From NCBI GenBank assembly GCA_041651575.1, contig JBAZJB010000001.1, forward strand, positions 266,609 to 330,608: DNA of 64,000 nucleotides, given 5' to 3'. The DNA comes from Candidatus Nanoarchaeia archaeon (GTDB taxonomy: Archaea; Nanobdellota; Nanobdellia; SCGC-AAA011-G17; JAFCDX01). Positions within the stretch are counted from its first letter, which is position 1. Each line of letters begins with the position of its first letter. The notes beneath the pieces were generated by a model. It was given only the letters and a program-made list of their open reading frames with translations, made no database searches and was not told the DNA's origin. Position numbers and translations under genes: made by a program. Below, one piece after another: positions 1,336-48,290 of this stretch.

Positions 1336-1376
1336 TTCTATTTTTGTATAATACTTTCTTTTATTTAAAATAAAAA

Positions 1377-1631
1377 TTAAATTAAAAAAACAAGGTCGTT
1401 GGCTCTTACTTTGTCAGAGACTTTTATTCCAATTGCTTGTCCTTTTTTTGCTTCTTCTACTGGTTTTCTGTCAATCTGTATAGAATCTACTTCTTGGGTA
1501 ATATTTGTAGTTGCTCCTTCAATAGAAATTTTATCTCCTACTTTTAAAGTTCCTTTTAACTGTATTACTGCTACGCCTATGTTACTAAAATAATGTTCTA
1601 TAACACCAATTTCTTTCTTTTTTGCAGGCAT
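1377..1631 (-). CDS. small beta-barrel protein resembling EF-Tu domain 2
   Basis: 84 aa; pattern GVIEHYFSNIGVAVIQL...VGDKISI resembles standalone EF-Tu-D2-like barrels; family weakly recognised. Confidence 0.35.
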   Translation of the reverse strand: MPAKKKEIGVIEHYFSNIGVAVIQLKGTLKVGDKISIEGATTNITQEVDSIQIDRKPVEEAKKGQAIGIKVSDKVRANDLVFLI

Positions 1632-1720
1632 AAAACACCCCCTTGTAATTATATTACTTTAGAATTTAAAAAGTTTATGAAAATACAAAGATTTATAAAG
1701 CATATTCTAGAATATATAGT

Positions 1721-2530
1721 ATGGAAACTATAAATGATATTACTTTAAGATTAGATAAAGAAATTGAACCTTATCTAGGTGAATTGAATTATGGTAATTT
1801 AAGAAAATCAAAATCTTGGCCAGGAATACATGAAAATGAAGCTATTTTTATGATAGCTTATGAAAGCCAATTATTATCTACAAATTGTTCAGGTTTATAT
1901 ATTACTAGAGATGAATCTGGAGAAATTAAAGCCGAAATGGATTCTGAAAAAAATCTTCCTTTAGAAAAAGCAGTTGATTTATTCGTTTCAAAAATTAAAA
2001 AGATTCCAAACGAAAGAATTGAAAAGACAATAGAATACTTTAAAACTAAAAGATTATTTGAAAAAAATTTAGCTGAACTCTGTAAAAATAGAGAAGAAAT
2101 AGAAATTTACACCGAACAAGAATTAAAAACTTTAAGAGAACATTATTCTAAATTTAAAAGAATAGCTGTTGCAGAAGATAATAAAAATATATTGGTAGCT
2201 TATGAGCATATATTTGGTATGATAAGTAAAGAGTTAGGTTTAAAATTAACTACAGATTATGCTGAAAATGGAAAAGGTTTGGTGATCTTACTTAAAAAGT
2301 ATAAAAATTGTTATGATTTAATAATCACAGATCATAATATGCCAGAATTAACAGGTTTAGAAGCAATTAAACAAATAAGAGGATTAGATAAAGAAATACC
2401 AATCTGCATTTTAAGTGGAGATAAATTAAAAGATGAAGCTTTAGAAGCAGGTGCTAATGAATTTCTTGAAAAACCTCCAACAATAAAAGATTTTGAAGAT
2501 TTATTCAAAAAATACTTTATTTTTCAATAA
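1721..2530 (+). CDS. response-regulator receiver (CheY-like REC) protein with unknown N-terminal domain
   Basis: C-terminal LIITDHNMPELTGLEAIKQIR...ICILSGD...GANEFLEKP is a REC domain; N-terminal ~150 aa uncharacterised. Confidence 0.6.
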   Translation: METINDITLRLDKEIEPYLGELNYGNLRKSKSWPGIHENEAIFMIAYESQLLSTNCSGLYITRDESGEIKAEMDSEKNLPLEKAVDLFVSKIKKIPNERIEKTIEYFKTKRLFEKNLAELCKNREEIEIYTEQELKTLREHYSKFKRIAVAEDNKNILVAYEHIFGMISKELGLKLTTDYAENGKGLVILLKKYKNCYDLIITDHNMPELTGLEAIKQIRGLDKEIPICILSGDKLKDEALEAGANEFLEKPPTIKDFEDLFKKYFIFQ

Positions 2531-2576
2531 ATTTTTATATAAGTTTATATAGTTATTTTCCTTCTATTATACAAAA

Positions 2577-5156
2577 ATGATAACTTTTAAGGAAAAACCA
2601 GATAAAGAAGAGGAGCTTTTTGATAGTTTACACCCCATTGTTAAAAAATGGTTTGAATCTAAATTCAAGAATTTTGCTTTATCTCAGTTGTATTCTATAA
2701 AAGAAATTAATGCTCAAAAAAACATACTAGTTTCTGCTCCTACAGGTTCTGGTAAGACTTTAACAGCTTTTTTATCAATTTTAAATGAATTAATCATACT
2801 ATCCGAAAATAATTTACTTGAAAATAAAGTATATGCGGTTTATATTTCTCCATTAAAAGCACTAAATTCTGATGTACAAATAAATTTAATAGAACCATTA
2901 AAAGAAATGGAAAAAATTGCAGGAAAAGAATTTGGAATTAAGGTTTTAGTAAGAACAGGAGATACAACTGCTTCAGAGAAAGCTAAAATGTTAAAAAAAT
3001 CTCCACATATATTAATAACTACACCAGAAACATTATCCATAGTAATATCTACAATAAAATTCAAAGAAAACCTAAAAAATGTAAGATATTTGGTTATAGA
3101 TGAATTACATTCCATTGCAGAGTCTAAAAGAGGAACAAACTTATCAATAAGTATAGAAAGATTACAACATTATTGTGAAAATGAAATTACAAGAATTGGA
3201 TTAAGTGCTACTTGTGAACCAATAGAAGAAATTGCTAAGTTTTTAGTGGGTTCCTCAAGAGATTGTATAATTTCTAGAATAGATCTTTCTAAAAAAATGG
3301 ATATTAAAGTTTTATCTCCTGTACCTGACTTAATTAATATAACTTATGAGAAAAAACATGATGAATTATATAATTTGCTAGATAAATTAATCCAAGAACA
3401 TAAAACAACTTTGATCTTTACTAATACAAGAAGTGCAACTGAAAAAGTAGTACATCATTTAAAAGAAAGATTTCCAAAAAATTACACTGAAAATATTGGA
3501 GCACATCATGGTTCTCTATCAAAAGAACACAGACAAAATATAGAACAACAATTAAGAGAAGGAAAATTAAAATGTATTGTTTGCTCTACTTCTTTAGAAT
3601 TAGGTATAGATATTGGTTATATTGATTTAGTTATTTTATTGGGAAGTCCTAAGTCAATTGCAAGAGCAATACAAAGAATTGGAAGAAGCGGACACTCATT
3701 ACATGAAACTATCAAAGGAAGATTTGTTGTAATGGATAGAGATGATTTAGTTGAATGTTCTGTAATGTTAAAGAATGTTATTGAAAGAAAAGTTGATAAA
3801 ATACATATTCCCAAAGATTGTTTAGATGTTTTAGCACAGCAAATTTATGGTATTGCTATAACAGAAATGATTCATATTGATTCTTTATTTAAAATGATTA
3901 AAAAAGCATATCCTTATTCTGATTTAGAAAGAAAAGATTTTCAAGAAGTCATTGATTATCTAGCTGGAAAGTATTCTAGTTTAGAAGATAGACATATTTA
4001 TGCAAAAATTTGGTATGATGAAGAATCAAAAATGATTGGTAAAAGAGGAAAATTAGCAAGGGTTATTTATATGTCAAATATTGGAACTATACCAGAACAA
4101 TCTTTTATAACAATTAAAATAGGAGAACAAGCTATTGGTCATGTAGATGAAGGTTTTCTTGAAAAATTAAAAAGGAATGATATCTTTTTATTAGGAGGAA
4201 ACACTTACAAATTTTTATTCGCTAGAGGAATGGTAGCACAAGTATTAGCTTCTGAAAGAAAACAACCAACAGTTCCTTCTTGGTTTTCAGAAATGTTACC
4301 TATGAATTTTGATTTAGCACTAGAAATAAATAGATTTAGAGGTTTAATGAAAGAAAAATTTGATTCTAAAAAATCTGAAGAAGATATTTTAAAATTCATT
4401 AATGAATATTTATATGTAGATTCTAACGCAGGAAAAGCAATTTATGAATATTTCAAAGAACAATATTATTATACTAATAAAAATATTCCAAATCCAAAAG
4501 AATTAATCATAGAATTTTTAAAAGAAGACGAAAAAAATTATGTTATTTTCCATTCTTTATATGGAAGAAGAGTAAATGATGTTTTATCAAGAGCAATTGC
4601 TTTTGCAATATCAAGAATACAACATAAAGATGTAGAAATAGGTATAAGTGATAATGGTTTCTATATTGCTTCTCCTGAAGATAGAAAAATTCAAGTTCTT
4701 AGAGCATTTAAATATATAAAATCAAGTGAATTAAGAAAAGTTCTTGAATTAGCCATAGAAAACTCTGAAGTTCTTAAAAGAAGGTTCAGACATTGTGCAG
4801 CAAGATCATTAATGATATTAAGAAATTATAAGGGTAGAGAAAAAAGAGTTGGAAGGCAACAAGTAAGTTCTATGATATTAATGAATGCAGTTAAAATGGT
4901 TTCTAAAGATTTTTGTATTTTAAGAGAAGCTAAAAGAGAAGTACTTGAAGATTTAATGGATATTGACAATGCAACTAAAATATTAAAAGACATTGAAGAT
5001 GGGAAGATAAAAATTAAAGAAATTTCAACTAGTATTCCTAGTCCTTTTGCTTTTAATTTGGTTCTAGCAGGGCATTTAGATTTCTTAAAATTAGAAGAAA
5101 AAGCAGAATTCATAAAAAGAATGCATTCTTATATATTAGCTAAGATAAATAAATAA
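2577..5156 (+). CDS. lhr: Lhr-family large ATP-dependent helicase (DEAD/DEAH box)
   Basis: 859 aa; Walker A SAPTGSGKT, DExH (VIDELH), helicase C motifs; C-terminal DEAD/H-associated-like region. Confidence 0.75.
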   Translation: MITFKEKPDKEEELFDSLHPIVKKWFESKFKNFALSQLYSIKEINAQKNILVSAPTGSGKTLTAFLSILNELIILSENNLLENKVYAVYISPLKALNSDVQINLIEPLKEMEKIAGKEFGIKVLVRTGDTTASEKAKMLKKSPHILITTPETLSIVISTIKFKENLKNVRYLVIDELHSIAESKRGTNLSISIERLQHYCENEITRIGLSATCEPIEEIAKFLVGSSRDCIISRIDLSKKMDIKVLSPVPDLINITYEKKHDELYNLLDKLIQEHKTTLIFTNTRSATEKVVHHLKERFPKNYTENIGAHHGSLSKEHRQNIEQQLREGKLKCIVCSTSLELGIDIGYIDLVILLGSPKSIARAIQRIGRSGHSLHETIKGRFVVMDRDDLVECSVMLKNVIERKVDKIHIPKDCLDVLAQQIYGIAITEMIHIDSLFKMIKKAYPYSDLERKDFQEVIDYLAGKYSSLEDRHIYAKIWYDEESKMIGKRGKLARVIYMSNIGTIPEQSFITIKIGEQAIGHVDEGFLEKLKRNDIFLLGGNTYKFLFARGMVAQVLASERKQPTVPSWFSEMLPMNFDLALEINRFRGLMKEKFDSKKSEEDILKFINEYLYVDSNAGKAIYEYFKEQYYYTNKNIPNPKELIIEFLKEDEKNYVIFHSLYGRRVNDVLSRAIAFAISRIQHKDVEIGISDNGFYIASPEDRKIQVLRAFKYIKSSELRKVLELAIENSEVLKRRFRHCAARSLMILRNYKGREKRVGRQQVSSMILMNAVKMVSKDFCILREAKREVLEDLMDIDNATKILKDIEDGKIKIKEISTSIPSPFAFNLVLAGHLDFLKLEEKAEFIKRMHSYILAKINK

Positions 5157-5209
5157 TTATACCTTGCCCCCATGTTAGAGTGGTTACAAATAGAAAGATT
5201 TATAAGTAG

Positions 5210-5620
5210 TTGGTAAATATTAATAATATGAATATTTTATATTTAACACGAAATCTTGAAGTAATGAAAGAACTACAGAAAGAAATGGATAGATTTCTAG
5301 ATGTTTATGATATTTCTGGAAAAGGAGATATTTTAGTATGTAAAGTAAAATTAGGAGAAATTAATACAAAATATAAACACATTATAGGTAATATTACCAC
5401 AAGTATAAATATTGATCCTTATAACTATCCCGCTTCGTATATTGATGAAATATTAGTAAAAAGTGGAGATGATTCAGATGCTCAGTTTATAAAAGTTGAC
5501 CCCCTAGGAATTGTATTAAAATTAGATAACCTCCTTTATGGAATTAAAATAAATAAAATGCCAAAAGAAGATGCAACCATTGGAAATGAAAATTTTCCTC
5601 CAGGTCCAATACTTGAATAG
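5210..5620 (+). CDS. hypothetical protein
   Basis: 136 aa ORF, no recognisable motif. Confidence 0.3.
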   Translation: MVNINNMNILYLTRNLEVMKELQKEMDRFLDVYDISGKGDILVCKVKLGEINTKYKHIIGNITTSINIDPYNYPASYIDEILVKSGDDSDAQFIKVDPLGIVLKLDNLLYGIKINKMPKEDATIGNENFPPGPILE

Positions 5621-5788
5621 ATATTTTACTAATCTTTTTCTCGTGGGTGTGAATATCTTCGAATTTCTAAAAAAATTTAAAAATAACTATTCTATTTTTA
5701 CTTTAATCACTTTTCTAAAGAAGTTATGGGCACAATAAAAAGAAATAATTACTTAATATTTGCATATATGTTGCCTAGGAAGCAAAAA

Positions 5789-6316
5789 TTATATTTTTAT
5801 TATTTTTTCTTCTATTGCTTCTTCTAAAGATATTCTTGCTAAATAAGGTAAAAATTCTGGACCGTATTTATCATAAATCTTTTCACGTTCTCCATCAGAA
5901 TACTTTTTATCTTCATCTGTTCTTAGATTTAAAATAAAATTTCCATATTCTGCAACTAATTCTGTTAGTTTATCATATCCTTCTGGTAATTTACCTGTTT
6001 TTAAATAAATATTAACTCCCTCAATCATACCAGGATTTACAAAATTATGTATAAAATGTCCAGATTCATGATATATCACCGCTTTAGAAAAAACACCCTT
6101 AATAAATTTTGGTTCCTTTAATGGAAAATAAATAAAATTATCTATCGAACTATAAGCAGGTACGTTTCTACTATGATCAGGATATTCGTCTGGTTTTAAA
6201 AAACGCCTAATAGTTGGTTTTCTGAATCTTTTTAATTCATCGCAACTAACTTTAAAATAAGGCATAAGATTATTTATTGCTTTTTCTATTTCCGCTTTTA
6301 ATAATTTTAGCTTCAT
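5789..6316 (-). CDS. putative HExxH zinc-metallopeptidase-like protein
   Basis: 175 aa; HESGH motif; shares one base with the upstream L,D-transpeptidase gene (translational coupling). Confidence 0.35.
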   Translation of the reverse strand: MKLKLLKAEIEKAINNLMPYFKVSCDELKRFRKPTIRRFLKPDEYPDHSRNVPAYSSIDNFIYFPLKEPKFIKGVFSKAVIYHESGHFIHNFVNPGMIEGVNIYLKTGKLPEGYDKLTELVAEYGNFILNLRTDEDKKYSDGEREKIYDKYGPEFLPYLARISLEEAIEEKIIKI

Positions 6317-7203
6317 TATCCTATTTTAACTTCAATTACTTTTTCTAAAGGATAAATTGTTCCTCTACTAGTAGTTTTTGGTTCTTTATGTAAAATATAA
6401 TGTAAAAATGCAGGATATAATTCTTCAATAACGTCTGGAATTCCTCTTACACAACCATGAGAAGGTCCAAGAGGTTTATTTGTAGAATGTAATCTTATTC
6501 CATCATCTCCAGCTAATCTAAATTCATAACCTATTAAATTAGGATTTGAATATAATTCTGCCATCCAAATTCCAAAAGGATTATTTTTTCCTGGTCCTAT
6601 AGGTCCTTTAGCACTTGCCCATTCTGGAGGATACCACCAAGGATTTTTTACTAATCTTTTAATATAAAATATTCCTGAAGGAGTACTAAAATCTCTTTCT
6701 TTAGTTTTTCCCATTCCTAAACCAACAGGTTTTTCAAGTAATAATATATTTTTAGAATTAAAACGTTGATAAACTTTTAATAAGGATTTCTTTTTATCTA
6801 TTTCTATAGAAAGGCCCATTTCGTCTACTAAAAAATTATTAGGTATTACCAAGGAATAATTTAAATTCCAACTCTGAAGGGGTTCATAACAACTAGATTT
6901 AATCTGAGAATATAATCCATTAAAATGAATTTTGAACTCAGAAACAATGTCATCCATATACTTTCCAAACAAATAAGAATTATTATTTTCTGTTATTTTT
7001 TCTCTTAAAAAATCTCTTAAATTAATATCTTTAATAATATGTTTATCTTTGTTATTAAATTCTCTGTTATAATCCTTTTTTATTAGTTCTTCTAATTCTA
7101 ATGCAGAAAAAGATATATCAGCTATACCTTCTTCTTTTTGGAATAAACAAATAGGTAAAGCTAAACTACAACTTTTGATGAAATCTCTTCTGTCAATCTT
7201 CAT
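6316..7203 (-). CDS. L,D-transpeptidase (YkuD-domain) with twin-arginine signal peptide
   Basis: 295 aa; N-terminal DRRDFIK Tat motif followed by a hydrophobic stretch; C-terminal TPSGIFYI...NPWWYPPEW...HST...SHGCVRG matches the YkuD catalytic region. Confidence 0.65.
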   Translation of the reverse strand: MKIDRRDFIKSCSLALPICLFQKEEGIADISFSALELEELIKKDYNREFNNKDKHIIKDINLRDFLREKITENNNSYLFGKYMDDIVSEFKIHFNGLYSQIKSSCYEPLQSWNLNYSLVIPNNFLVDEMGLSIEIDKKKSLLKVYQRFNSKNILLLEKPVGLGMGKTKERDFSTPSGIFYIKRLVKNPWWYPPEWASAKGPIGPGKNNPFGIWMAELYSNPNLIGYEFRLAGDDGIRLHSTNKPLGPSHGCVRGIPDVIEELYPAFLHYILHKEPKTTSRGTIYPLEKVIEVKIG

Positions 7204-7296
7204 AACTTGGTTTTTTGTAGTTTATTTATAAAGCTTTCTTTTATAGAGTGTTATCTCCTTAGTAAGTGAAAAATTTACAAAATATTTATATAGGGT

Positions 7297-8595
7297 ATGC
7301 TAAACTTTTTTATTATGTATGTCCACCAAAAAGAAAAATTAGATATTGCTCTTGCTGAAAAATTTAGAGATGTAAATAAAGTTAGGGCCATTATAGAATC
7401 ATATAATGAAAATTTTAATATAAGAAAAACTGCTGATAAAGTAGGGGTATCTACTGATAATGTTTGTTATTATTTAAGAAGATGTGGAATAACAAAACAT
7501 ACAAAAAGGGTGAAGCTTATAACGCCCCCTTTATCTGATAATAACTCTTCAAATTCTAGATTATTGAGAGAAAAAGAACATCTAACCCAATTAAGTCAAA
7601 ACAGTGTAAAAGAATTATACTCTAATGAAAAAATAACTTCAGAATTTAAAGAATATGATTTATTATATTCAAATTTATATAACAAATTAAAAGAAACTAT
7701 CCCTCTGGCTAAACTAGAAGAAATAGCTAAAGATTTAGACATCTCTAAAGAGGTTATATCTAAAAAAGATAGAATAGAAAGTATAGTAATTTATTTATTA
7801 AACAATGGAAATTTAGAAAATAAAAAAGAGATTAAAAAAGAATTTGAAAAATGTACTGAACAAAGAAATAAGATTTCTTTTAGGCATATGGGTTTATTAA
7901 AAAAGTATGCAGGATATTTTGCTAGATGTAATCCAGATGAAACCTTTGAAAATTTATATATGGAAGGCTACTTAGGATTATTAAAAGCAATTAATGGTTT
8001 TGATATTAAAAAAGGGTTTAGATTTTCTACATATAGTACTTGGTGGATTAAAGAAACTATTTTAAGACATTTACAAAATTCTGGAAAGATTAGAGTCCCA
8101 GTATATATTCAAGAAAGTGTTAATCTATTAAATAAAGTTCAAGAAAAATTCTTTGAAAAGCATGGAAGAGCTCCAACCTATCAAGAAATATCATCTATTA
8201 CTAGATGGAATTTAGATAAAATAAAAAAAATATGTGAAATAATAAAACCAAAGGTTGTTTCTTTAGATGAAGAACTAAATGATGAATATACAAAAAATTT
8301 AATGGAAATTGTAACAGATAATGAACAAAAAGGTCCTGATGAAATTATAGAAAAAGAAAGTATAAAAGAAACTATTGAAAAAGCATTATTAAATCTAACC
8401 CCAAAAGAAGAAAATATACTAAGAGCGAGACATGGAATTACGCATGATACAGAAAATAAACATTATAATAATAAAAGGGCACTTGAAGAAGTAGGAGAAG
8501 ATTATGGCCTGTCAAGACAAAGAATTGAACAAATAGAAAAAATAGCACTAAACAAATTAAAACATGATCCTGAGATATTAAAATTACGCTCTTAA
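7297..8595 (+). CDS. bacterial-type sigma-70 family RNA polymerase sigma factor (regions 2, 3, 4 plus N-terminal HTH extension)
   Basis: 432 aa; region 2 YMEGYLGLLKAINGFDIKKGFRFSTYSTWWIKETILRHL; region 2.4/3 IRVPVYIQESVNLLNK; region 4 LTPKEENILRARHGI...LEEVGEDYGLSRQRIEQIEKIALNKLKH; near-collinear with RpoD. Confidence 0.75.
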   Translation: MLNFFIMYVHQKEKLDIALAEKFRDVNKVRAIIESYNENFNIRKTADKVGVSTDNVCYYLRRCGITKHTKRVKLITPPLSDNNSSNSRLLREKEHLTQLSQNSVKELYSNEKITSEFKEYDLLYSNLYNKLKETIPLAKLEEIAKDLDISKEVISKKDRIESIVIYLLNNGNLENKKEIKKEFEKCTEQRNKISFRHMGLLKKYAGYFARCNPDETFENLYMEGYLGLLKAINGFDIKKGFRFSTYSTWWIKETILRHLQNSGKIRVPVYIQESVNLLNKVQEKFFEKHGRAPTYQEISSITRWNLDKIKKICEIIKPKVVSLDEELNDEYTKNLMEIVTDNEQKGPDEIIEKESIKETIEKALLNLTPKEENILRARHGITHDTENKHYNNKRALEEVGEDYGLSRQRIEQIEKIALNKLKHDPEILKLRS

Positions 8596-8636
8596 ATATT
8601 AAAAAATCAACCATAGTAAAATTTATAAACGAATAT

Positions 8637-8657
8637 TTTCGCGAAAGCTATAAATAT
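8637..8657 (+). promoter_or_regulatory. BRE/TATA promoter (cgaaag + ctataaat) for the archaemetzincin gene
   Basis: Same cgaaag-TATA architecture recurs at 38973 (rRNA operon), 53497 and 44770. Confidence 0.4.
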
Positions 8658-8678
8658 CTTTCGTTTTATTCTATTTAT

Positions 8679-9332
8679 ATGAATAATATTAAACCATTAT
8701 ATCTAATGAATGAAAAAGGATTGTCTGATTTAGAACTAAAAGCTGTTCAAGATGGAATTATTGAATTAATGGATTGTGCTAATATAAAATTAGATATAAA
8801 AAATTTTGGAGTTTGGAGAGCTAATATTTCAAAACCTTGGTGGAGCATTGATTGGTATCTAGAACAAGGTAAAAGGACTAGCACACAAAATAATCAAATT
8901 AATGCAGGTTATATGCTTGATTTAATTATACAAGAACCTTGGAGAAAAAATGAAGATCATTACGATGTTATGGTATTACATTCAGATATATATTCTAGAG
9001 ATACGAGATTTGTTATAGGATTGGCTAGCGAAGGTATAGGTACAATAATCTCTGTTAAAAGATTCAAACACTCCGAACTAGGCAATGAGATGAAATATGA
9101 GTGTATAAAAACAGAAACTATGCATGAACTTGGACATGTATTTGGTTTAGTACCTAATAAAAGAAAAATTAATGTTGAAGAAAGTCTAGGTAAACATTGT
9201 ACAAATAGATGTGTAATGAGACAAGGATTAACAGTTCCACGAGATTGGATTAATATAACTAAAGACAGATTAAAGTATAAACCTTTATGTGAAATTTGTG
9301 AAACTGATTTAAAGGCTTATTTTAGAAAATAA
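8679..9332 (+). CDS. amzA: archaemetzincin (zinc metalloprotease)
   Basis: 217 aa; HELGHVFGL followed by CTNRC...CEIC, the HExxHxxGx3Cx4C...CxxC archaemetzincin signature. Confidence 0.7.
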   Translation: MNNIKPLYLMNEKGLSDLELKAVQDGIIELMDCANIKLDIKNFGVWRANISKPWWSIDWYLEQGKRTSTQNNQINAGYMLDLIIQEPWRKNEDHYDVMVLHSDIYSRDTRFVIGLASEGIGTIISVKRFKHSELGNEMKYECIKTETMHELGHVFGLVPNKRKINVEESLGKHCTNRCVMRQGLTVPRDWINITKDRLKYKPLCEICETDLKAYFRK

Positions 9333-9366
9333 TAAAATTTATAAATAAACCTTTTATCTTAATAAT

Positions 9367-9525
9367 ATGGGAAAATACAGATGCAAGAGATGTTCTTACA
9401 GTTTTGCTCCAAAAGGTACAATAACACCAAAAGTATGCCCTGCATGTGGTGCACCTGCTTCTAATTTATACAAAGATTATGATGCAGCAAGCCTTTTAGA
9501 AGACTGCGACAAAGACGGCTTTTAA
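9367..9525 (+). CDS. small zinc-ribbon protein (two CxxC pairs), unannotated short ORF
   Basis: 52 aa read codon by codon: MGKYRCKRCSYSF...CPACGAP...; CxxC x17 CxxC. Confidence 0.35.
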   Translation: MGKYRCKRCSYSFAPKGTITPKVCPACGAPASNLYKDYDAASLLEDCDKDGF

Positions 9526-9531
9526 GAAAAT

Positions 9532-10242
9532 ATGTATTTATACAAAAATAAAGAAAGAGTTCTAGCAAAAGATTTATTTTTATATTTAGAAAAGGAAAAA
9601 ATACTAATTTTATCCGATTTACATATTGGTTTGGAAGAGGCAATGAACAAACAAGGAATATTATTGCCTAGATTTCAATTTCAAGAACTAGTTAAAAGGA
9701 TAGAAAAAGTGTTTAAAGATTTAGAAATTAAAAAAATCATTGTAAATGGAGATTTGAAACATGAATTTGGAACTATTTCTAACCAAGAATGGAGTCAGAC
9801 ATTAAAAATAATTAACATTCTAAGCACTAAAGCAGAGCTTATACTAGTAAAAGGTAATCATGATACTATCTTAGGACCTATTGCAGAAAAAAAGGATATA
9901 AAGGTCTTAGAATACTATAAGGTAAATGATATTTATATTTGTCATGGACATAAAATACCAGAAAATAAAGACTTTAAAAATTCTAAATTAGTTATAATAG
10001 GACATGAACATCCTGCAATTAGTTTTAAAGAGAGACCCACTGAGAAATTTAAATGTTTTTTAGTAGGAAAATACAAAAATAAAACCTTAATTGTACAACC
10101 TTCACTAAATTTAGTTTCTGAAGGCACAAACGTAACTAAAGAAAAATTATTAAGCCCTTTTTTAAAAGATTTAAAAGACTTTGAAGTTTTTGTAGTAGAA
10201 GACAAAATTTATAAATTTGGTAAATTAAAGAATATTAACTAA
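9532..10242 (+). CDS. calcineurin-like metallophosphoesterase
   Basis: 236 aa; LILSDLHIG, VNGDL, GNHD, GHEH motifs in canonical order. Confidence 0.7.
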   Translation: MYLYKNKERVLAKDLFLYLEKEKILILSDLHIGLEEAMNKQGILLPRFQFQELVKRIEKVFKDLEIKKIIVNGDLKHEFGTISNQEWSQTLKIINILSTKAELILVKGNHDTILGPIAEKKDIKVLEYYKVNDIYICHGHKIPENKDFKNSKLVIIGHEHPAISFKERPTEKFKCFLVGKYKNKTLIVQPSLNLVSEGTNVTKEKLLSPFLKDLKDFEVFVVEDKIYKFGKLKNIN

Positions 10243-10503
10243 AGAAATAATTACTTTTCCTTCTAATCCATTTATTTTTGATTCAGTAATTTTATTCATA
10301 GACTCTAATCTTCCCAAAACAACATTCCAATTAGCATCACCATTACAACTTAATCCAGACGATTCTAATTGTTTAATAACATAATCTACTGGGGCAAAAG
10401 GCAGAAGAGCTTTTATTTTATTCTCTTTTAAATAATTCTTACAAGCTATTTGTATTGCTTTATAGGCATCTTCATAAGGTCCAAAATCTTGAGATGTTGA
10501 CAT
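10225..10503 (-). CDS. hypothetical protein
   Basis: 92 aa ORF. Confidence 0.3.
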   Translation of the reverse strand: MSTSQDFGPYEDAYKAIQIACKNYLKENKIKALLPFAPVDYVIKQLESSGLSCNGDANWNVVLGRLESMNKITESKINGLEGKVIISLVNIL

Positions 10504-10557
10504 AACAAATCTAAGAACCTTCTTAATATAAACATTTATTCAATTCAATATATATTT

Positions 10558-11046
10558 TTATAAGGTATGTAATTCATGAACTGTTTTATAAGAATGTAAT
10601 TCATCTTTAGTAAACCATAAATCTATTTCTTTTTTAGCATCATCTTTGTTAGCAGAAGCATGTACTAAGTTTCTTGTAGCATCATTCTTTTTATCTGCTT
10701 GGGCATAAGAAACATGAGCATAATCTCCTCTTATTGTTCCTGGAGCAGAAGCTCTTGGTTCTGTACTACCAATCATTTTTCTAACAATTTCAATAGCACT
10801 AACGCCTTCAAGGCATGCTGCTATTATTGGTCCTTCTGATAAATATTTTACACTATTATCAAATATTTTTTTACCATTTCTTTTTTCTACATCGAAATAA
10901 TGTTTTCCTGCAAATTCTTTAGTAGCATAAACCATCTTCATTCCAACTATTTTTAAACCAACTTTTTCAAATCTAGTAATTATCTCTCCAATAAATCCTC
11001 TTTGTACACAGTCTGGTTTTAATAATATCAATGTTCTTTCTATCAT
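10558..11046 (-). CDS. ndk: nucleoside diphosphate kinase
   Basis: 162 aa; ERTLILLKPDCVQRGFIGEIITRFE... and NLVHASAN active-site His region. Confidence 0.85.
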   Translation of the reverse strand: MIERTLILLKPDCVQRGFIGEIITRFEKVGLKIVGMKMVYATKEFAGKHYFDVEKRNGKKIFDNSVKYLSEGPIIAACLEGVSAIEIVRKMIGSTEPRASAPGTIRGDYAHVSYAQADKKNDATRNLVHASANKDDAKKEIDLWFTKDELHSYKTVHELHTL

Positions 11047-11363
11047 TTTCTTGTACTTCCTAAAAGAGTTTTTAAATGAAATTCTCTTCTACTTTTTATA
11101 AAAGCAACTCTATTGCTACCTTCAATCAAAACAAAAACGTCTCCTTTTTTATTATAATCTTGTTTTGCCAATTTATCTGCTTGTTCCCAAGCTTTATAAT
11201 AAAATTGTGGAGTAACATGTTTTATAACCATGAGATCAAGATGTTTAAATTTTCTTTCTTTTGTAAATTCTCTATTAAAAGTCAGATTATCTTCAATTGC
11301 TTCTCTTTTTGCTATTTCTTCAGCAACTCTTTCTGCTGTTGATTGTTCATTCACACTAGACAT
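11043..11363 (-). CDS. hypothetical protein in operon with ndk (sits where L24e is found in the archaeal L7Ae-S28e-L24e-ndk cluster, but has no Zn finger)
   Basis: 106 aa; stop overlaps the ndk start. Confidence 0.3.
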   Translation of the reverse strand: MSSVNEQSTAERVAEEIAKREAIEDNLTFNREFTKERKFKHLDLMVIKHVTPQFYYKAWEQADKLAKQDYNKKGDVFVLIEGSNRVAFIKSRREFHLKTLLGSTRK

Positions 11364-11476
11364 ATTAAATTTAGAAAATTAAAAGTATTTAAATCTTACC
11401 TGTCATATCTTATCCTACCTTTTATAAAATAGATTGTACAGAATAATAATATTTATTAATAAAATATAAATATAGT

Positions 11477-12490
11477 ATGAGTATGGATAGAGGTAAAATA
11501 ACAATTCTAGCATGTGATTCTGGAAAACCTTTTGCAGAAAAAATAATACGCCATCTAAATAAATTAGAAAATAATAATTTACAATCAATTAATGTTACAG
11601 AAAAACATTTTTCAAATTCAGAAATTAAAACAGAAATTAGCGAAAGTGTAAGAGGTACAGATGTATATATTATACAAGGATTTGAAAATTCAGTTACAAA
11701 TCGTTCTGTAGATGAAGATTTAAGAGCATTAAAAGCGACAATAGACGCAGCATATAGAGCAGATGCAAGCTATGTTACTGCAGTTGTTCCTGTTTTTCCA
11801 TATGCTAGACAAGAAAAATCTCTAAGCAGAGAAGGTATAACTGCTGCAATGGTAGCAAGAGAAATAGAAGATTGTGGAGCATACAGAGTAATTACTTTAG
11901 ATATACATGCTGAAGCAAATGCAGGATTTTTTAGAAAAGCTAGATTTGAAAATCTTAAAGCTTCAAATATGATTATACCTTATATCAAAGAAAATATTGG
12001 ATTAGATAATCTGGTTATTTCATCAGCAGATACAGGTGGAGCATCTAGAGCAAACTATTATGCAAACAATTTAGGAGTAAATAGAAATATTGTATTTAAA
12101 GTTAAAGATTATAAAAAAGCAGCAGGAGAACAAGTAGAAAAAGTAGAATTACTTGGAGAGGTTAATAATAAAAAAGTTTTTGTTATAGATGATATGATAG
12201 ATACAGGTTCAACTGCAAGACCCGTTATAGAATTATTAAGAAATAGAGGAGCAACAGAAGTTTATTTTGGATGTAGTTTGCCTTTATTTAATGGTCCTGC
12301 AAAAGAAAGATTATCTCAATTATATAAAGAAGGATTATTAACTAAAGTTATTGGAACTGATGCAGTATATCATGGAGGAGAAAAATTCCTTCAAGAAAAT
12401 CCTTGGTATAATGAAGTAAGTGTAGCTGGCCATTTTGCTCAAGTTATTCATAATATTAATAAAAAAGAATCTATAACTAAATTATTATAA
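11477..12490 (+). CDS. prs: ribose-phosphate pyrophosphokinase (PRPP synthetase)
   Basis: 337 aa; PRPP-binding loop VFVIDDMIDTGSTA; N-terminal ITILACDSG. Confidence 0.8.
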   Translation: MSMDRGKITILACDSGKPFAEKIIRHLNKLENNNLQSINVTEKHFSNSEIKTEISESVRGTDVYIIQGFENSVTNRSVDEDLRALKATIDAAYRADASYVTAVVPVFPYARQEKSLSREGITAAMVAREIEDCGAYRVITLDIHAEANAGFFRKARFENLKASNMIIPYIKENIGLDNLVISSADTGGASRANYYANNLGVNRNIVFKVKDYKKAAGEQVEKVELLGEVNNKKVFVIDDMIDTGSTARPVIELLRNRGATEVYFGCSLPLFNGPAKERLSQLYKEGLLTKVIGTDAVYHGGEKFLQENPWYNEVSVAGHFAQVIHNINKKESITKLL

Positions 12491-12825
12491 TGATAACTTG
12501 TGAAAATTGTGGAGAAGAAGCACATTACAACTTATTATTTTTTGGCGGAAGATGGGAAATAGATAGTTATGATGGAATTGAAAAACCAATTCAAAGAGGG
12601 TATGATTCTTGTTGCAATCCAATTTGTTTAATTGAAACTGTAAAAACACCTAAAACAAAAAATATAGGTGACCTTATGGAAATTTTTGATTTTGATGGAG
12701 AAGAAAAACCACGATTAGTAGAATTAATTAAAAAAGCTTTAAGAGATGAATTAGAAATTGATACAATAAAAAATTTAGCTTGGATAGCAGATCCACCAAA
12801 AAAACAATTAAAATTTCCTTTTTAA
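12490..12825 (+). CDS. hypothetical small Cys-containing protein
   Basis: 111 aa; CENCGEE ... CCNPIC. Confidence 0.3.
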   Translation: MITCENCGEEAHYNLLFFGGRWEIDSYDGIEKPIQRGYDSCCNPICLIETVKTPKTKNIGDLMEIFDFDGEEKPRLVELIKKALRDELEIDTIKNLAWIADPPKKQLKFPF

Positions 12826-12828
12826 AAT

Positions 12829-13383
12829 TTATTCTTGAACTATTCCAGCCAAGTATCCTTCTGTAGATATAGGATAAGTAGTATATGGAGTTAAAACATT
12901 TCCTCTCATTCTTGATTTTTCATAAACTTTAGCTTCTAAAAGTATTGGAGTATCTACAAAATCACCCATATCTGGGCAAGATACTACAATTATTTTTTCT
13001 TGATTGAAATCAATTCCATCTTCTACTAAACCATTTGTAACTTGTTTACAACCATTATCTCCTACATTAGGCAATTCTATTTTTGTTATAGAAGCAATTC
13101 CAGATCTATCGTGTCTTATTTTTAATTCAATTGCATTACTTGTTATTTTTTTACCTAAGCAAGTAAATTCTCTATCAAATTTACAATCTTCTGCTCCTGT
13201 AAAAGATCTTACTTCTGCTGTATCTTTATCACATATTTTATCTTGATTTTTATCTAAACAACAATCTCCACCCATATAAGTATAAGGAGCATTACAACTA
13301 TCCATAACAACATTACCAGTAATACAACCCGATATAAAAAATACAGTTAATAGAATTAATATGATTGAAAGCCCTTTTTTCAT
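12829..13383 (-). CDS. secreted lipoprotein (lipobox-like ISGC), paralog of element gene 35517..36260
   Basis: Signal peptide plus SGC; shares CN.PY....G.(D/E)CCLD.N....CDKD with ORF 35517. Confidence 0.45.
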   Translation of the reverse strand: MKKGLSIILILLTVFFISGCITGNVVMDSCNAPYTYMGGDCCLDKNQDKICDKDTAEVRSFTGAEDCKFDREFTCLGKKITSNAIELKIRHDRSGIASITKIELPNVGDNGCKQVTNGLVEDGIDFNQEKIIVVSCPDMGDFVDTPILLEAKVYEKSRMRGNVLTPYTTYPISTEGYLAGIVQE

Positions 13384-13463
13384 ACGCGGTATCTGCTAGA
13401 TGTAGTTTATATACATTTATGTATAGAAAATATATGTTTGTTATTAATATATTGTAGAATATA

Positions 13464-14183
13464 CTATTTTTTCTTTCTTTTTGATCTAAAATAAAAGAAT
13501 GCCATTCCAACCAATACAAAAACGACTCCTAGTAAAAATACAGGCCAATTATAATTTTGAGGAACATAATTATTTACAATTTGCATAAATTGTTCGTTAT
13601 TTGTTAATGTAAAAAAGTCCTTTGCATATCCACTAAAAATTATTTTTCCATAATCATATAACCAAGTATATAATACAAGAACAACTCCTATAATCATTAA
13701 ACTCCATTCTTTAACATTTATTTTTACTTTTATCCCTTTATCTTCAAAATTTAGTATAATAAAAGTCATAGCTATAAAAAGCACACAACATATTAGTGGG
13801 GCTAAAACTGGTCCAACCCAAACCCAAGGAATAAGGAAAAGCATATCCCAAGTCAATAAAGAAGAGGGCCAATCTAAAACTAATTTAAGGAAAACATAAT
13901 AAAATACATCCCAAATAGCAAAAGCATATAGAAAATAAGCAAACCTTTCATATAATTTTTTTGCTGCAAGCATAGAAATAGTTACTAACATAACAATTGT
14001 TGCAAATTCTCTTATCCATTCAACACTTAATATAGAAGGATCTAAAAAACCTTTTAAAGGAAAATCAAAACCATTTGGATAAAGTAATTTTCTTAAATAT
14101 ATTACAACAGCTGCTTCAAGAAAACCCATAGCTATTGCAAAAATTGTAATAATTAAAAGTTTATTTCTACTCTCTTTTTTCAT
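13464..14183 (-). CDS. multi-pass membrane protein, hypothetical
   Basis: 239 aa, multiple hydrophobic helices. Confidence 0.4.
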   Translation of the reverse strand: MKKESRNKLLIITIFAIAMGFLEAAVVIYLRKLLYPNGFDFPLKGFLDPSILSVEWIREFATIVMLVTISMLAAKKLYERFAYFLYAFAIWDVFYYVFLKLVLDWPSSLLTWDMLFLIPWVWVGPVLAPLICCVLFIAMTFIILNFEDKGIKVKINVKEWSLMIIGVVLVLYTWLYDYGKIIFSGYAKDFFTLTNNEQFMQIVNNYVPQNYNWPVFLLGVVFVLVGMAFFYFRSKRKKK

Positions 14184-14239
14184 AATTAATTAAATAAATT
14201 ATTCTTTTTAAATCTTTCTTATACCAAAAATTAAAAAAA

Positions 14240-14581
14240 TTAAAGTTTAAGGCGCTTAGCCTCTTTCTGTAGAAGTTTAAAATCTCTTTTAGTATCAAGA
14301 TACCATTGTTTTTCGCTTCTATCACTAAAAGCTTTGTTTCCTTTTTTTGAAACTTCTTTATTCCACTTCTTTACCGTTTTACTAAAAAAGTTCAAGGATT
14401 TTAAAACTCTGTCTTTGTAGATTGCTGATTTCTTAAATTTTTCAAGGAGATTAGATTTCTGTTTAAGCTCTTTTTCAAGAGATAATAGAGAGGAAATTGC
14501 ATAAACATCTCTACCTCCCTTTTTTTTAGCATTTCTAATCTCTTTCTGTATTTCTTCAAGTAGATTATAAGTCATTTTCAT
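14240..14581 (-). CDS. Lys-rich hypothetical protein
   Basis: 113 aa. Confidence 0.3.
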   Translation of the reverse strand: MKMTYNLLEEIQKEIRNAKKKGGRDVYAISSLLSLEKELKQKSNLLEKFKKSAIYKDRVLKSLNFFSKTVKKWNKEVSKKGNKAFSDRSEKQWYLDTKRDFKLLQKEAKRLKL

Positions 14582-14583
14582 AT

Positions 14584-15183
14584 TTATCTAATTCTTTTCC
14601 AATTTCCTCTGCTTACTTCTTTGTTAACATCAGATCTACTCTTAGGGAAGCAAGTAATAATATCTTTCCCATTTTTATCTCCAATAGTCAACATTCTTGT
14701 TGAAGGATTGTAAGCTACACTTCTTCCATCCCTAACTTGAATATATCTTTCAACAGACTTGCTATTCATATTTTTTTTACATTCATTTTTAAATTGTGTC
14801 TTTGTTGGAGGACTCGAACTCCAAATATTTGGAAAGTCATTAATGTGTTTATACTCAATTAAATTAGAATAAGAATAAGCTTGATAATAAATCCAAGTAC
14901 TATACCCTATTCTATATACAACATAACCACCTACAATTACTGCAGCAGCAACTGCTATGGCTGTAACAAAAGGCGAAATAATAGCAACTATTACTGCGGA
15001 TAAACCTGGAAATAGGTTTACAAAGGAATTCGCTTGTCGTTGAGGACTTGCACTCTTAGCGGAGTTACTATCTTTTAATATAACTCCATCTGTAGTCTTA
15101 ATTTCTTCTGCTAAACAAATTGGCAACATAATAATTAATGCTGCAAGAAAAAAACTTATTGATACTAGTTTGTAATTTTTCAT
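14584..15183 (-). CDS. membrane-anchored hypothetical protein
   Basis: 199 aa; N-terminal TM plus internal hydrophobic helix. Confidence 0.35.
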   Translation of the reverse strand: MKNYKLVSISFFLAALIIMLPICLAEEIKTTDGVILKDSNSAKSASPQRQANSFVNLFPGLSAVIVAIISPFVTAIAVAAAVIVGGYVVYRIGYSTWIYYQAYSYSNLIEYKHINDFPNIWSSSPPTKTQFKNECKKNMNSKSVERYIQVRDGRSVAYNPSTRMLTIGDKNGKDIITCFPKSRSDVNKEVSRGNWKRIR

Positions 15184-15304
15184 AATATACCCCCTAAATA
15201 TCTTATATTTAGATATATAAACTTCTATATATAGTTTTCGTAAAATTATCTTTACTAATCAGTTACCAAAAACATTAAAAGCAAATACAATTCTCTAATT
15301 TGTA

Positions 15305-15658
15305 ATGGTACAATATATAGAAGCACCAGAATTAAAAGAAAGAGCGATTGAAATAGCTAAAAGATTTAATTTAAATTATATAGATTTTGAAAGAGTTCAC
15401 TTTTACAGATATTCTTGTGATACAAGAACTTGTGCAAAAATTACTGGTTTCTTTAGAACTTTACAATTGATTTATCCGCATATAAAACCTTTTTATGTTA
15501 TAACTTTTAATAATCATAATTTTGAAAGAGTTTCTAAAAGAGATCAAGATGTTACCATATTGCATGAATTATTACATATTCCTAAAAACTTTTCAGGAGA
15601 ATTTGGAAAAATAGCACATTCAGAAATAAGACGTTTGTCTAAAGATTGGATTAACTAG
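15305..15658 (+). CDS. putative metal-dependent hydrolase (DUF45/YgjP/SprT-like HExxH)
   Basis: 117 aa; C-terminal ILHELLHIPKNFSGEF resembles the DUF45 HELxHL..NHS motif. Confidence 0.4.
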   Translation: MVQYIEAPELKERAIEIAKRFNLNYIDFERVHFYRYSCDTRTCAKITGFFRTLQLIYPHIKPFYVITFNNHNFERVSKRDQDVTILHELLHIPKNFSGEFGKIAHSEIRRLSKDWIN

Positions 15659-16797
15659 AATTTTCTATGATCATAACAAACTCTCTTTATGATTTTAGCA
15701 ATTTCTTTGTAACTCCCACCATAAGTATTAAGCAATTCTATCCCACTCTCTACTGTATGTGGAGCTCTTGAGTCAGGATAACCCTCCAACATAAAATGAG
15801 AAGGTAACATCCAAGCAGCAACTATAGACCCTGCTTCTATTAGATTTGCACGTTTATCTTCTGATAATTGATCATCATTCGGATTATCATTAATATAAGG
15901 AAGCAATTTATTTAAATCTTCTAAAAAAGGAGTATATCTTTTATCCAATTCTATTCTACTATCCTTTCCAGATTTAGATCCCCATGGAGCAGCGTAATAA
16001 ACAACTTCTTGTTTATCATTATTTTTTACTGAACTTCTTAAAAAATGAACAGGAATTATTACTTTATCATTGATGTCTTTAATTCCTTGGAAAAATAATT
16101 TATGTAATTTCCCGAATATTTTTAGATTACTTTGTTCTTTTTCAAGATGAGGGAAATATAATTGTCCTTCTTTTGTTTTTATTCTCTTAGGTAATAAAGA
16201 ATATCTTGCTGCAAATGCGTGTGATAATGCTTTTCCTTCTCCAAGACCGCTTGCAAGAGCGACTAAATAATTTAATGAAGCTTGATATTTTGTTAGAGCT
16301 TGATCTTGTCCTGATCTATTATAATACATATCTACTGAAGGAAGTTCAAATGTATTTGCTAAATGTTCTAATTTATTAAATAATTCTTCTTCTCCTAATA
16401 CTCCGCCTTTTTTATCTTTTAAAAGACCTGCTTTAAAATCTGCAAAAATAGTATTTGGTCTATATCCTATTCCAGGGACATCTTCATCTTCTATTTCTTT
16501 ATCTTTTTCAGAATCTAATTTTCCAGGCGAAGTAAGCATTTCTTCTCCAGGTAATTTTCCTGTCCCATCTCCAAGTTCAACATAATGCCCAGGAGTTTCT
16601 ACTTCTTCTAGTTCTTGTTCTAATTCTATTTCTTCAATAGGAGTAATTACTTCTTCTATTTTTAATAAATCTTCTAGATCTCCTTGTTCACCAAAATGTT
16701 TTGCAAACATAGGTAATTGTTCTTTAGATAAAGGAATATATATTACAAGTTGTGATTCATTTCCATCTTTTTCTAGACTATATTTATTAATTTTCAT
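15655..16797 (-). CDS. hypothetical acidic protein
   Basis: 380 aa; overlaps the next gene by 4 nt. Confidence 0.35.
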   Translation of the reverse strand: MKINKYSLEKDGNESQLVIYIPLSKEQLPMFAKHFGEQGDLEDLLKIEEVITPIEEIELEQELEEVETPGHYVELGDGTGKLPGEEMLTSPGKLDSEKDKEIEDEDVPGIGYRPNTIFADFKAGLLKDKKGGVLGEEELFNKLEHLANTFELPSVDMYYNRSGQDQALTKYQASLNYLVALASGLGEGKALSHAFAARYSLLPKRIKTKEGQLYFPHLEKEQSNLKIFGKLHKLFFQGIKDINDKVIIPVHFLRSSVKNNDKQEVVYYAAPWGSKSGKDSRIELDKRYTPFLEDLNKLLPYINDNPNDDQLSEDKRANLIEAGSIVAAWMLPSHFMLEGYPDSRAPHTVESGIELLNTYGGSYKEIAKIIKRVCYDHRKF

Positions 16798-17663: not shown

Positions 17664-17824
17664 CTATTAGTAGTTACTATATAGTAACAACCTTATTTAT
17701 AAATCTTTCTATAATCTATTTTAGCTTATACTCTCTATTTTTAAACCTTCTTTTATGGGTTTATAGGCTTTAAAACAAACAAAAAAGCAAAACTTTTATA
17801 AATAAAATACGTACCCAAAATGTT

Positions 17825-40628: not shown

Positions 40629-40688
40629 ATATTTTTTTAAAATATAATATAATAAATAATAGAACTCACTAAATGCTTTTGCTCATAC

Positions 40689-40824
40689 TTGATTAACTGG
40701 GCCTGTAGTTCAGCGGTAGAATACCTCCCTTGCACATAAATTTTTGATAAAATTTTATCGAAGAAAGGAGGGGGTCTCGGGTTCGAAATAGTTTTTTCAG
40801 AAATTGAATAACTTTGAAAATCCC
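40689..40824 (+). tRNA. tRNA-Ala(TGC) with two introns: canonical anticodon-loop intron (40725..40755) and a 33-nt T-loop intron (40778..40810, between positions 59 and 60)
   Basis: Exons fold into acceptor GGGCCTG/CGGGTCC, D arm GTTC/GAAT, anticodon arm CCTCC-CTTGCA-GGAGG, T arm TCGGG-TTCGAAT-CCCGA, discriminator A. Confidence 0.65.
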
Positions 40825-40920
40825 GACGGGTCCACATTTAAGTATTTATTTATGAGGATCCATAACATAATTGTTTGGGTTTGATAGTTAATATATCATA
40901 TTAACTGTGCATAGGATTTG

Positions 40921-43806: not shown

Positions 43807-43916
43807 TCCAAAAATCCTATGCACATTTATTTTTTATTTCTATAAATTTTTCCAAATCCTAAATTTTAATTTCTTAAAACATTAAATTTATATATAGCTA
43901 TTGCAGTATACATTAT

Positions 43917-48195: not shown

Positions 48196-48268
48196 GACCG
48201 ATGTAGTATAACGGTTATTATATGCGGCTGTGGCCCGCATGAAGAGGGTTCAACTCCCTCCTTCGGTC
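48196..48268 (+). tRNA. tRNA-His(GTG) with encoded G-1, directly upstream of hisS
   Basis: Anticodon arm TGCGG-CTGTGGC-CCGCA; T arm GAGGG-TTCAACT-CCCTC; G-1/C73 pair; one acceptor mismatch and a weak D stem. Confidence 0.55.
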
Positions 48269-48290
48269 CTTTTACCTCAGAGGTGAAAAA

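Follow-up and report, generated by a model that had tools for sequence, protein, structure and literature searches.

A much-diverged bacterial-style sigma-70 gene in a strain-variable island of a Nanoarchaeia genome, possibly encoding a free DNA-binding regulator

A 64-kb stretch of the genome of Candidatus Nanoarchaeia archaeon, a small, symbiotic-type member of the DPANN archaea (hereafter the window), contains an intact, much-diverged bacterial-style gene of the sigma-70 family. The gene is accessory cargo of a strain-variable hot spot, in which a 4.17-kb island (Table 1) separates an Lhr-type helicase gene from conserved Zn-ribbon and phosphoesterase genes. From the way in which its residues depart from those of bacterial sigma factors, we tentatively propose that the protein acts as a core-independent, sequence-specific DNA-binding regulator of promoters that depend on the TATA-binding protein (TBP) and transcription factor B (TFB).

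The longest uninterrupted open reading frame (ORF) at this position spans 7297–8595 on the forward strand and comprises 432 amino acids (aa), while the 426-aa product annotated from the same gene is identical to NCBI MFA5175904.1 ('sigma-70 family RNA polymerase sigma factor [Candidatus Nanoarchaeia archaeon]'). An earlier note on this DNA, made from the letters alone, had read the ORF as a sigma-70 factor near-collinear with the RpoD regions. The motifs it quoted are present in the sequence, and the hidden Markov model (HMM) search that it suggested places Sigma70_r2, r3 and r4 all above their Pfam gathering thresholds (GA; Table 1). Its collinearity is further supported by a phmmer search against the PDB, in which aa 185–431 align with RpoD/SigA chains (E ~1e-39), and by structure prediction. 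AlphaFold2, supplied with 59 aligned homologues, modelled sigma2, sigma3 and sigma4 at predicted local distance difference test (pLDDT) values of 80–92, and the best Foldseek matches of this model are SigA/RpoD chains of holoenzyme structures (probability 1.0); the single-sequence model (pLDDT 44) was too poor for use. Among the NCBIfam models, those for RpoD, cyanobacterial SigA, RpoS and SigB score 137–171 bits, whereas the SigF/FliA/sigma-32 models, at 77–93 bits, fall far below the RpoD/RpoS/SigA models. The superfamily model TIGR02937 is the sole NCBIfam model whose cut-off is passed (96.6 versus 42.9), all RpoD/RpoS equivalog cut-offs being missed by far (RpoD_Cterm 170.8 versus 354; PRK05658 160 versus 555), and the protein gives no Pfam match to region 1.1 (PF03979) or region 1.2 (PF00140). 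Judged by these scores, it is a group 1/2-like (RpoD/RpoS-like) sigma factor and not an RpoD orthologue.

The N-terminal extension that precedes these domains has no Pfam match beyond noise at E values of up to 10, and a search with the N-terminal 196 aa alone returned nothing, not even the source protein itself, which makes it a weak negative. AlphaFold2 pLDDT values are 55–73 for aa 1–60 and below 50 for aa 60–180, with aa ~42–62 modelled as a helix pair at 66–73. Of the extra N-terminal helix-turn-helix (HTH) that had been claimed, the helix pair is thus modelled at moderate confidence, while its identity as an HTH is plausible and unproven. MAFFT sets 'IYLLNNG' (aa 165–171) against the region 1.2 motif 'MYLKEIG', and the segment may be a vestige of that region. 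A degenerate internal duplication of sigma3–sigma4 was considered as the origin of the N-terminus and rejected (1.7 bits; BLASTP E >1).

The protein is at most 42% identical to anything in approximately 15 billion proteins. In a set of 5.8 billion clusters at 90% identity, the match ranking next to the protein's own entry is 36% identical, and every listed match is bacterial and RpoD-like; an exhaustive phmmer pass over 1.84 billion cluster representatives yielded no relative that exceeded 166 bits or 42% identity. No archaeal sigma factor occurs among the best 120 or 150 matches. Five of the top phmmer matches are assembly artefacts with duplicated segments, one further match stands in an ordinary bacterial dnaG–rpoD locus and another on an uninformative 3.7-kb contig. 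Scanning the contigs of GTDB representative genomes, which do not include the source genome, returned only five loci, all of them bacterial, and tblastn against phage genomes gave at most 38.5% identity. Because the best identity does not exceed 42%, a donor lineage is not identifiable.

The genome that carries the gene is archaeal, as the earlier note had it. Archaeal ribosomal RNAs and RNase P RNA lie in the window (Table 1), its S12, S7 and aEF-2 proteins exceed the archaeal equivalog cut-offs, and the 10 kb upstream on the source contig encode archaeal Rpo1 A'/A'', an L7Ae-family protein (Pfam Ribosomal_L7Ae) and NusA, followed by S12 and S7. Apart from the rRNA operon, the GC content of the window is ~26–28% throughout. 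The sigma gene has a GC content of 0.254 compared with 0.26 for its neighbours, a GC content at third codon positions (GC3) of 0.12, and a correlation of 0.96 with host genes in relative synonymous codon usage (RSCU), in agreement with the stated match of AT content and codon usage to the host. The same gene order is found on three contigs, of 20–50 kb, 315 kb (ENA) and 766 kb (766,449 bp), which possibly derive from the same reads. The archaemetzincin downstream of the gene had also been cited as archaeal context; this part does not hold, since the encoded protein, AMZ217, reaches only 59.3 bits with the NCBIfam archmetzin model against a cut-off of 145 (Pfam Peptidase_M54 is weak as well) and its gene sits inside the island.

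The promoter of the gene is likewise of the host type. Many genes of the window carry TTTATA 29–30 nucleotides (nt) before their ATG, typically within the consensus AAAGATTTATAA, a 12-mer that is enriched in the window (18 sites versus 8.2 ± 2.9 expected). Genes with this spacing include those of the response regulator and EF-2, the genes ending at 49974, 52618, 53390 and 55519, and, with TTTATA at -29, hyp136 (ATG 5228), YkuD and the 52-aa Zn-ribbon ORF. At the level of sequence, this implies that the mRNAs are mostly leaderless and fits promoters with a TFB-recognition element (BRE) and a TATA box. For the sigma gene, TTTATA takes up the -30 position only with ATG 7315 as the initiation codon, so that this codon, which yields the 426-aa protein, is probably the start. 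Since the BRE/TATA is of the host type and placed for a leaderless transcript, the archaeal RNA polymerase should transcribe the gene. The archaeal promoter boxes noted earlier on both sides of the gene are supported by this -30 box and by the -29 box of YkuD. A check for bacterial -35/-10 promoters, run on the first 20 kb, gave no enrichment over shuffles: 116 sigma70-type promoter-like sites between 1 and 20 kb compared with 120.6 ± 13 in shuffled sequences. Sites of AAAGATTTATAA occur in many intergenic regions (e.g. 1687–1698, 5194–5205, 17697–17708, 49998–50009 and 53504–53515), and the distance from TTTATA to ATG can help to correct the choice of start codon, as for the sigma gene (7315) and hyp136 (5228).

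The protein was compared with its 272 nearest bacterial sigma factors, using E. coli sigma70 numbering taken from HMMER alignments. Of the 81 columns conserved at 90% or more, it agrees with the consensus in 54 and departs from it in 27. Retained residues include E407, G408, G411, L412, A415, F419 and G424 in region 2, the melting core of region 2.3 (F427, S428, T429, Y430, W433 and W434) together with R441, R451, P453 and E458 in region 3, and R562, G564, L573–G577, R584, R586 and Q589 in region 4. In region 2.2, by contrast, L402E, D403N, I405Y, Q406M and N409Y replace LDLIQEGN with ENLYMEGY, and the conserved motif D-L-I/V-Q-E-G-N is not matched. The bacterial sigma factors have D403 in 272 of 272, Q406 in 270 and N409 in 266 cases, and D403 is kept in all seven diverse bacterial sigma factors compared, including the SigF/G-, SigE/K- and FliA-like types of group 3. 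It is presumably through residues 402–409 that a sigma factor chiefly contacts the beta' clamp helices. Further changes concern region 2.4 (Q437E, T440L), region 3.0 (H455Y), the region 3.2 finger (G512N, D516T, S517K, F522I) and region 4.2 (E585Q, R588E, K593I, R596N), R588 being present in 276 of 277 bacterial sequences, and seven residues are inserted between regions 4.1 and 4.2. We take residues 437 and 440 to read position -12, residues 455 and 458 to read the extended -10 element and residues 584–589 to read the -35 element; among them, the canonical reading residues Q437, T440, H455, E585 and R588 are all altered in this protein. Changes thus cluster in regions 2.2, 2.4 and 4.2, while the aromatic core of region 2.3 stays, a pattern which suggests that the fold and the DNA-melting surface have been retained and that polymerase docking and promoter specificity have been rewritten. 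After the query, most consensus departures among the database sigma factors (25 of 81) are found in a protein (P0141; locus L088, 2180–3253) whose 12-kb contig of small ORFs, with S-adenosylmethionine (S-AdoMet) lyase, MazG-like and HD proteins, is probably viral.

We propose the following hypothetical role for the protein, in which it would no longer act as an RNA polymerase subunit and would instead bind DNA freely, with a new specificity provided by sigma4, sigma2 and the novel N-terminal extension, thereby modulating promoters dependent on TBP/TFB, of which those in its own island are the most plausible. The first candidate target would be the divergent YkuD–HExxH operon, 93 bp away, and the adjacent metalloprotease AMZ217 might be a processing or control partner. 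This reading follows from the remodelled docking helix and specificity residues, from the retention of the DNA-contacting melting core of region 2.3 and of R584, R586 and Q589, the scaffold of the region 4.2 HTH, and from the polymerase genes seen in the DNA examined, that is, the 64-kb window and 10 kb upstream, all of which are archaeal. Neither a second sigma factor nor an anti-sigma factor was recognised among the scanned window genes (the Pfam scan covered ~30 of 62 ORFs of at least 110 aa), although no screen was aimed at anti-sigma factors. Region 1.1, which this protein lacks, reportedly masks the DNA binding of free sigma70. An ORF of 426 codons that has stayed intact in a genome of 26% GC with its stop-rich composition points to selection on the gene.

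Several points weigh against this proposal. Free sigma factors are usually poor DNA binders, and alternative sigma factors vary at some of the changed positions (Q406, for instance, varies in group 3). The roles that we assume for residues 402–409, 437/440 and 584–588 are those of E. coli sigma70. As no relative exceeds 42% identity, purifying selection is not measurable, nor can a target motif be deduced; the DNA-binding role is read from a single sequence, and the DNA examined amounts to 64 kb plus 10 kb upstream of a 766-kb genome, in which a bacterial-type core polymerase might be encoded elsewhere.

The variability of the site became apparent from a sister genome, the Nanoarchaeia metagenome-assembled genome (MAG) GCA_028716945.1 (locus L087), which was found by a YkuD search. 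The flanks are 90–97% identical between the window and this genome, with amino acid identities of 100% for S12 and 98.5% for S7 (further proteins in Table 1). DNA homology ends at 5161, five bases past the Lhr stop, and restarts at 9329; the only island stretch common to both is YkuD 6316–7135 (79.6% nt identity). In the sister, the island consists of a 115-aa ORF, YkuD, an N4/N6 DNA methylase and an HNH nuclease, without a sigma gene. A metagenome scan for Lhr recovered 80 related loci with Lhr at 60–75% identity, none of which has a sigma gene within 10 kb. Lhr is accompanied by an SbcD-related phosphoesterase in 41 of these 80 DPANN loci, and in the two closest (L007 and L076) it is followed directly by the Zn-ribbon ORF and the phosphoesterase, the site being empty. 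The sigma gene was either gained in the lineage of the window or lost in the sister. The earlier suggestion of a horizontally acquired bacterial island stands insofar as the 4.17-kb island is lineage-specific. It does not stand as a recent bacterial acquisition, since the gene is fully ameliorated and the promoters are archaeal and leaderless, and the immediate source was for the same reasons probably a compositionally similar archaeon or element rather than a bacterium.

This variability bears on a rather unlikely alternative, in which the site is a hot spot for mobile or defence genes and the sigma factor controls a cassette of selfish or defensive nature, not host physiology. By analogy, it might form a regulator–protease pair with the metalloprotease, comparable to ImmR/ImmA, or belong to a sigma-containing anti-virus module. 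The differing gene content between genomes with near-identical flanks, the restriction-modification-like methylase and nuclease at the sister's site and the empty site in more distant relatives would all fit, as would a generic match to MzaA (NCBIfam 156 bits, PADLOC 94 bits) and to the phage sigma PHROG 351, and the virus-like contig, with S-AdoMet lyase and MazG, of the most similar divergent sigma (P0141). However, no integrase, recombinase or mobility gene is present in the island, its other genes have no PHROG or PADLOC match, and scans of viral contigs found no relatives of the sigma factor, AMZ217 or HExxH175. MzaB–E are absent and the MzaA score (155.8) is far from its cut-off of 800; an MZA defence system or phage origin was rejected, as only generic sigma similarity turned up. 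The direct repeat at the island edges is marginal. This 43-nt repeat (5188–5230 and 9327–9369) was tried as a target-site duplication and discarded: it matches at 31 of 43 positions, which is above 500 shuffles, while other promoters reach 30 of 43, and it most likely reflects shared promoter architecture.

It is also unlikely that the gene merely persists without function, as the decaying or neutral remnant of a sigma gene once transferred, even though it is an orphan without close relatives, is absent from the nearest relative, has no known cognate core polymerase in the host and is changed at one third of the near-invariant positions, functionally central ones included. A relic would hardly be expected to keep an unbroken 426-codon ORF, given that chance ORFs are short in so AT-rich a genome, or a host-type promoter at the canonical distance. 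The fully ameliorated codon usage implies long residence without disruption, and the changes are non-random, in that the fold-defining, region 2.3 and region 4.2 scaffold residues stay and the domains model confidently.

A working sigma factor for a bacterial RNA polymerase, which would be delivered to, or act on, a bacterial partner (e.g. of the Candidate Phyla Radiation, CPR) and redirect its transcription as phage sigma factors do, had been put forward speculatively in the earlier note and appears improbable. The complete sigma2–3–4 architecture and the retained melting residues would fit such an effector, as would YkuD next door, an enzyme of the bacterial cell-wall type with its nearest homologues outside Nanoarchaeia, at 41–50% identity, in Minisyncoccales. 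On the other side, the protein has no signal peptide and no secretion system is encoded nearby, near-invariant positions in helix 2.2 carry other residues (D403N, Q406M, N409Y, L402E), as do positions of the region 3.2 finger and those for the -10 and -35 elements, including R588E, and there is no excess of sigma70-type promoters in the first 20 kb. The presence of the gene varies between strains, and the hosts known to date for DPANN archaea are themselves archaea ('known episymbionts of other archaea', PMC8204110).

The clustering of changes in the polymerase-docking helix 2.2 would also be expected if sigma2 had come to dock on the clamp coiled-coil of archaeal Rpo1, the site of transcription factor E (TFE) and Spt5, as an alternative initiation factor, modulator or competitor. 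The clamp coiled-coil of archaea and the beta' clamp helices of bacteria are homologous, and a distance of 7 kb separates the gene from the archaeal RNA polymerase operon, which is weak evidence. With no precedent and no evidence of co-variation, and with the gene absent from a sister whose transcription apparatus is near-identical, we regard this as very improbable; if true, it would amount to a sigma-type promoter-specific initiation factor on a polymerase of the archaeal/eukaryotic type. An assembly or binning artefact, in which a bacterial fragment was co-assembled into an archaeal contig, is scarcely credible: the source is metagenomic and island junctions are classic places for mis-joins, but GC, GC3, codon usage and the leaderless archaeal promoter are host-like, both flanks match the sister MAG at 90–97% with the island's YkuD common to both, the archaeal rRNA and RNA polymerase operons are on the same contig, and the gene order recurs on the three contigs, possibly from the same reads.

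Table 1. Features of the sigma-70 locus and of its archaeal setting (positions within the window)
Feature	Position	Strand	Remarks
Variable island, 4.17 kb	5162–9328		hyp136, HExxH175, YkuD, sigma, AMZ217; between Lhr and Zn-ribbon/phosphoesterase genes
Sigma-70-family gene	7315–8595	+	426 aa from ATG 7315; ORF list, Pfam r2/r3/r4 above GA
N-terminal extension, ~160–190 aa	7297–7866	+	no homologue found, no Pfam family; putative HTH at ~aa 42–62
Sigma70_r2 (PF04542), aa 196–261	7882–8079	+	Pfam E 8.8e-12, 45.1 bits, GA 24
Sigma70_r3 (PF04539), aa 273–349	8113–8343	+	Pfam E 3.3e-10, 40.4 bits, GA 25.3
Sigma70_r4 (PF04545), aa 363–423	8383–8565	+	Pfam E 1.5e-14, 53.6 bits, GA 24.1
Putative archaeal TATA box (TTTATATA)	7285–7292	+	30 nt before ATG 7315
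BRE/TATA (AAAGCTTTATAA) of divergent YkuD operon	7226–7237	-	TTTATA at -29 of YkuD ATG (7203)
Lhr-type helicase	2577–5156	+	conserved left flank; Pfam, NCBIfam; 92% aa identity to L087
hyp136, 130-aa hypothetical protein	5228–5620	+	exact AAAGATTTATAA promoter at 5194–5205
HExxH175, 175 aa	5789–6316	-	HESGH motif; overlaps YkuD stop, same operon; no family match
YkuD L,D-transpeptidase	6316–7203	-	twin-arginine N-terminus; Pfam YkuD 65 bits; 67% identical in sister MAG
AMZ217, 217-aa archaemetzincin-like Zn-metalloprotease	8679–9332	+	HELGHVFG and Cys motifs; directly downstream of sigma
Zn-ribbon ORF (CxxC...CxxC), 52 aa	9367–9525	+	conserved right flank; 98% identical in sister
SbcD-related phosphoesterase	9532–10242	+	conserved right flank; 94% identical in sister
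Archaeal small-subunit (SSU) rRNA	39161–40628	+	same window
Archaeal large-subunit (LSU) rRNA	40912–43817	+	same window
Archaeal RNase P RNA	43920–44243	+	~100 nt past 23S

Among the neighbours of the sigma gene, YkuD had been described as an L,D-transpeptidase secreted by twin-arginine translocation (Tat), in accordance with its Pfam score and with the motif RRDFIK, which was spotted by eye. It is fast-evolving, being only 67% identical between genomes whose flanking proteins are 92–100% identical. Its nearest homologues outside Nanoarchaeia come from Minisyncoccales, which are CPR bacteria, and sequence similarity hints at an exchange of YkuD between CPR and DPANN. HExxH175 and AMZ217 proved, on comparison, not to be paralogues. 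The 52-aa Zn-ribbon ORF lies below the 60-aa limit of the ORF listing; gene calling did pick it up in L006 and in the sister locus, L007 and L076 have it in the corresponding position, and it seems to complete the Lhr–phosphoesterase cluster of these archaea as a third conserved gene.

The wider surroundings are unusually fluid for a stretch beside core information-processing genes. The S12–S7...EF-2 cluster is split by 16.5 kb (1336–17824) with several indels relative to the sister: the sister locus lacks 11374–12808, with its phosphoribosyl pyrophosphate (PRPP) synthetase gene and 111-aa ORF, and a 263-aa ORF and a 2',5' RNA ligase are found in this interval only in the sister. The response regulator beside Lhr (269 aa; 1721–2530, forward strand), whose receiver domain is C-terminal (148–257) and whose N-terminal 147 aa are without assignment, is kept in the sister (77% identity), and no histidine kinase was seen nearby. 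At 15305–15658 (forward strand), a 117-aa ORF with a PhageMetallopep (PF18894) match, 99% identical in the sister MAG, stands among five hypothetical genes without a family match (12829–17663). Two near-identical promoter-bearing elements of ~60 nt (TAGAGTAATATTATAACCYTTAAAA..., none expected by chance) at 50026–50085 and 51076–51134 (forward strand) precede two unrelated genes, 50086–50739 and 51135–52052. The rRNA operon (39161–44243, forward strand) consists of 16S, a 283-nt spacer and 23S, with no 5S rRNA or spacer tRNA detected. ARAGORN and Rfam identified one tRNA in the 64 kb (tRNA-His, 48197–48269), split or intron-containing tRNAs being liable to escape detection. A tandem of bacterial-type DNA gyrase genes, GyrB and GyrA (55685–60480, forward strand), represents another system of bacterial affinity in this archaeon.

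The idea, from which the earlier note had started, that a sigma factor in archaea is unheard of does not hold. Sigma-70 genes (fam00359) were reported in many DPANN genomes, especially of Woesearchaeota, by Castelle et al. 2021 (PMC8204110), who excluded mis-binning, did not find anti-sigma factors and left the mechanism open; no later functional work on DPANN sigma-70 was found in the literature searched. Like those sigma factors, the gene described here is of bacterial affinity and stands beside archaeal markers, and no anti-sigma factor was recognised among the genes scanned here. Compared by description only, this copy differs from them in its identity of at most 42% to any protein, its unique N-terminal extension, its location in a strain-variable island and its altered core-binding and promoter-reading residues. 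What this copy adds is its setting in an island, its archaeal promoter of leaderless type and the specific loss of its docking motif. The gap between Lhr and the phosphoesterase in Nanoarchaeia is a hot spot in which genes of cell-wall, restriction-modification and regulatory types are exchanged.

With RpoD/SigA and RpoS, the protein shares collinear regions 2.1–4.2 at 30–42% identity, the three-domain fold and the aromatic core of region 2.3. It differs from them in lacking region 1.1 and a significant region 1.2, in scoring below the equivalog cut-offs, in its archaeal host apparatus and in the changes at D403, Q406, N409, Q437, T440, H455, E585 and R588. It resembles the PHROG 351 phage sigma factors and MzaA as accessory or mobile cargo with a non-canonical N-terminus, and its HMM scores with these are near its RpoD scores; in contrast to them, it has no viral or MZA partner genes nearby, and its identity to phage proteins is at most 38.5%. 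As a core-independent regulator, the protein would be most comparable in its mode of action to the archaeal HTH_10, LuxR-type and Tfx regulators, in which a bacterial-type DNA-binding domain modulates TBP/TFB promoters. Whereas those regulators possess only a sigma region-4-like HTH (PMC5413776), this protein keeps the whole sigma2–sigma3–sigma4 body. What sigma-70 proteins do in cells that rely on TBP and TFB is the question left by Castelle et al. 2021, and this copy offers a compact test case: it is intact, has an archaeal promoter, is absent from a near-identical sister and shows a clear division between kept and changed residues, which predicts core-independent DNA binding.

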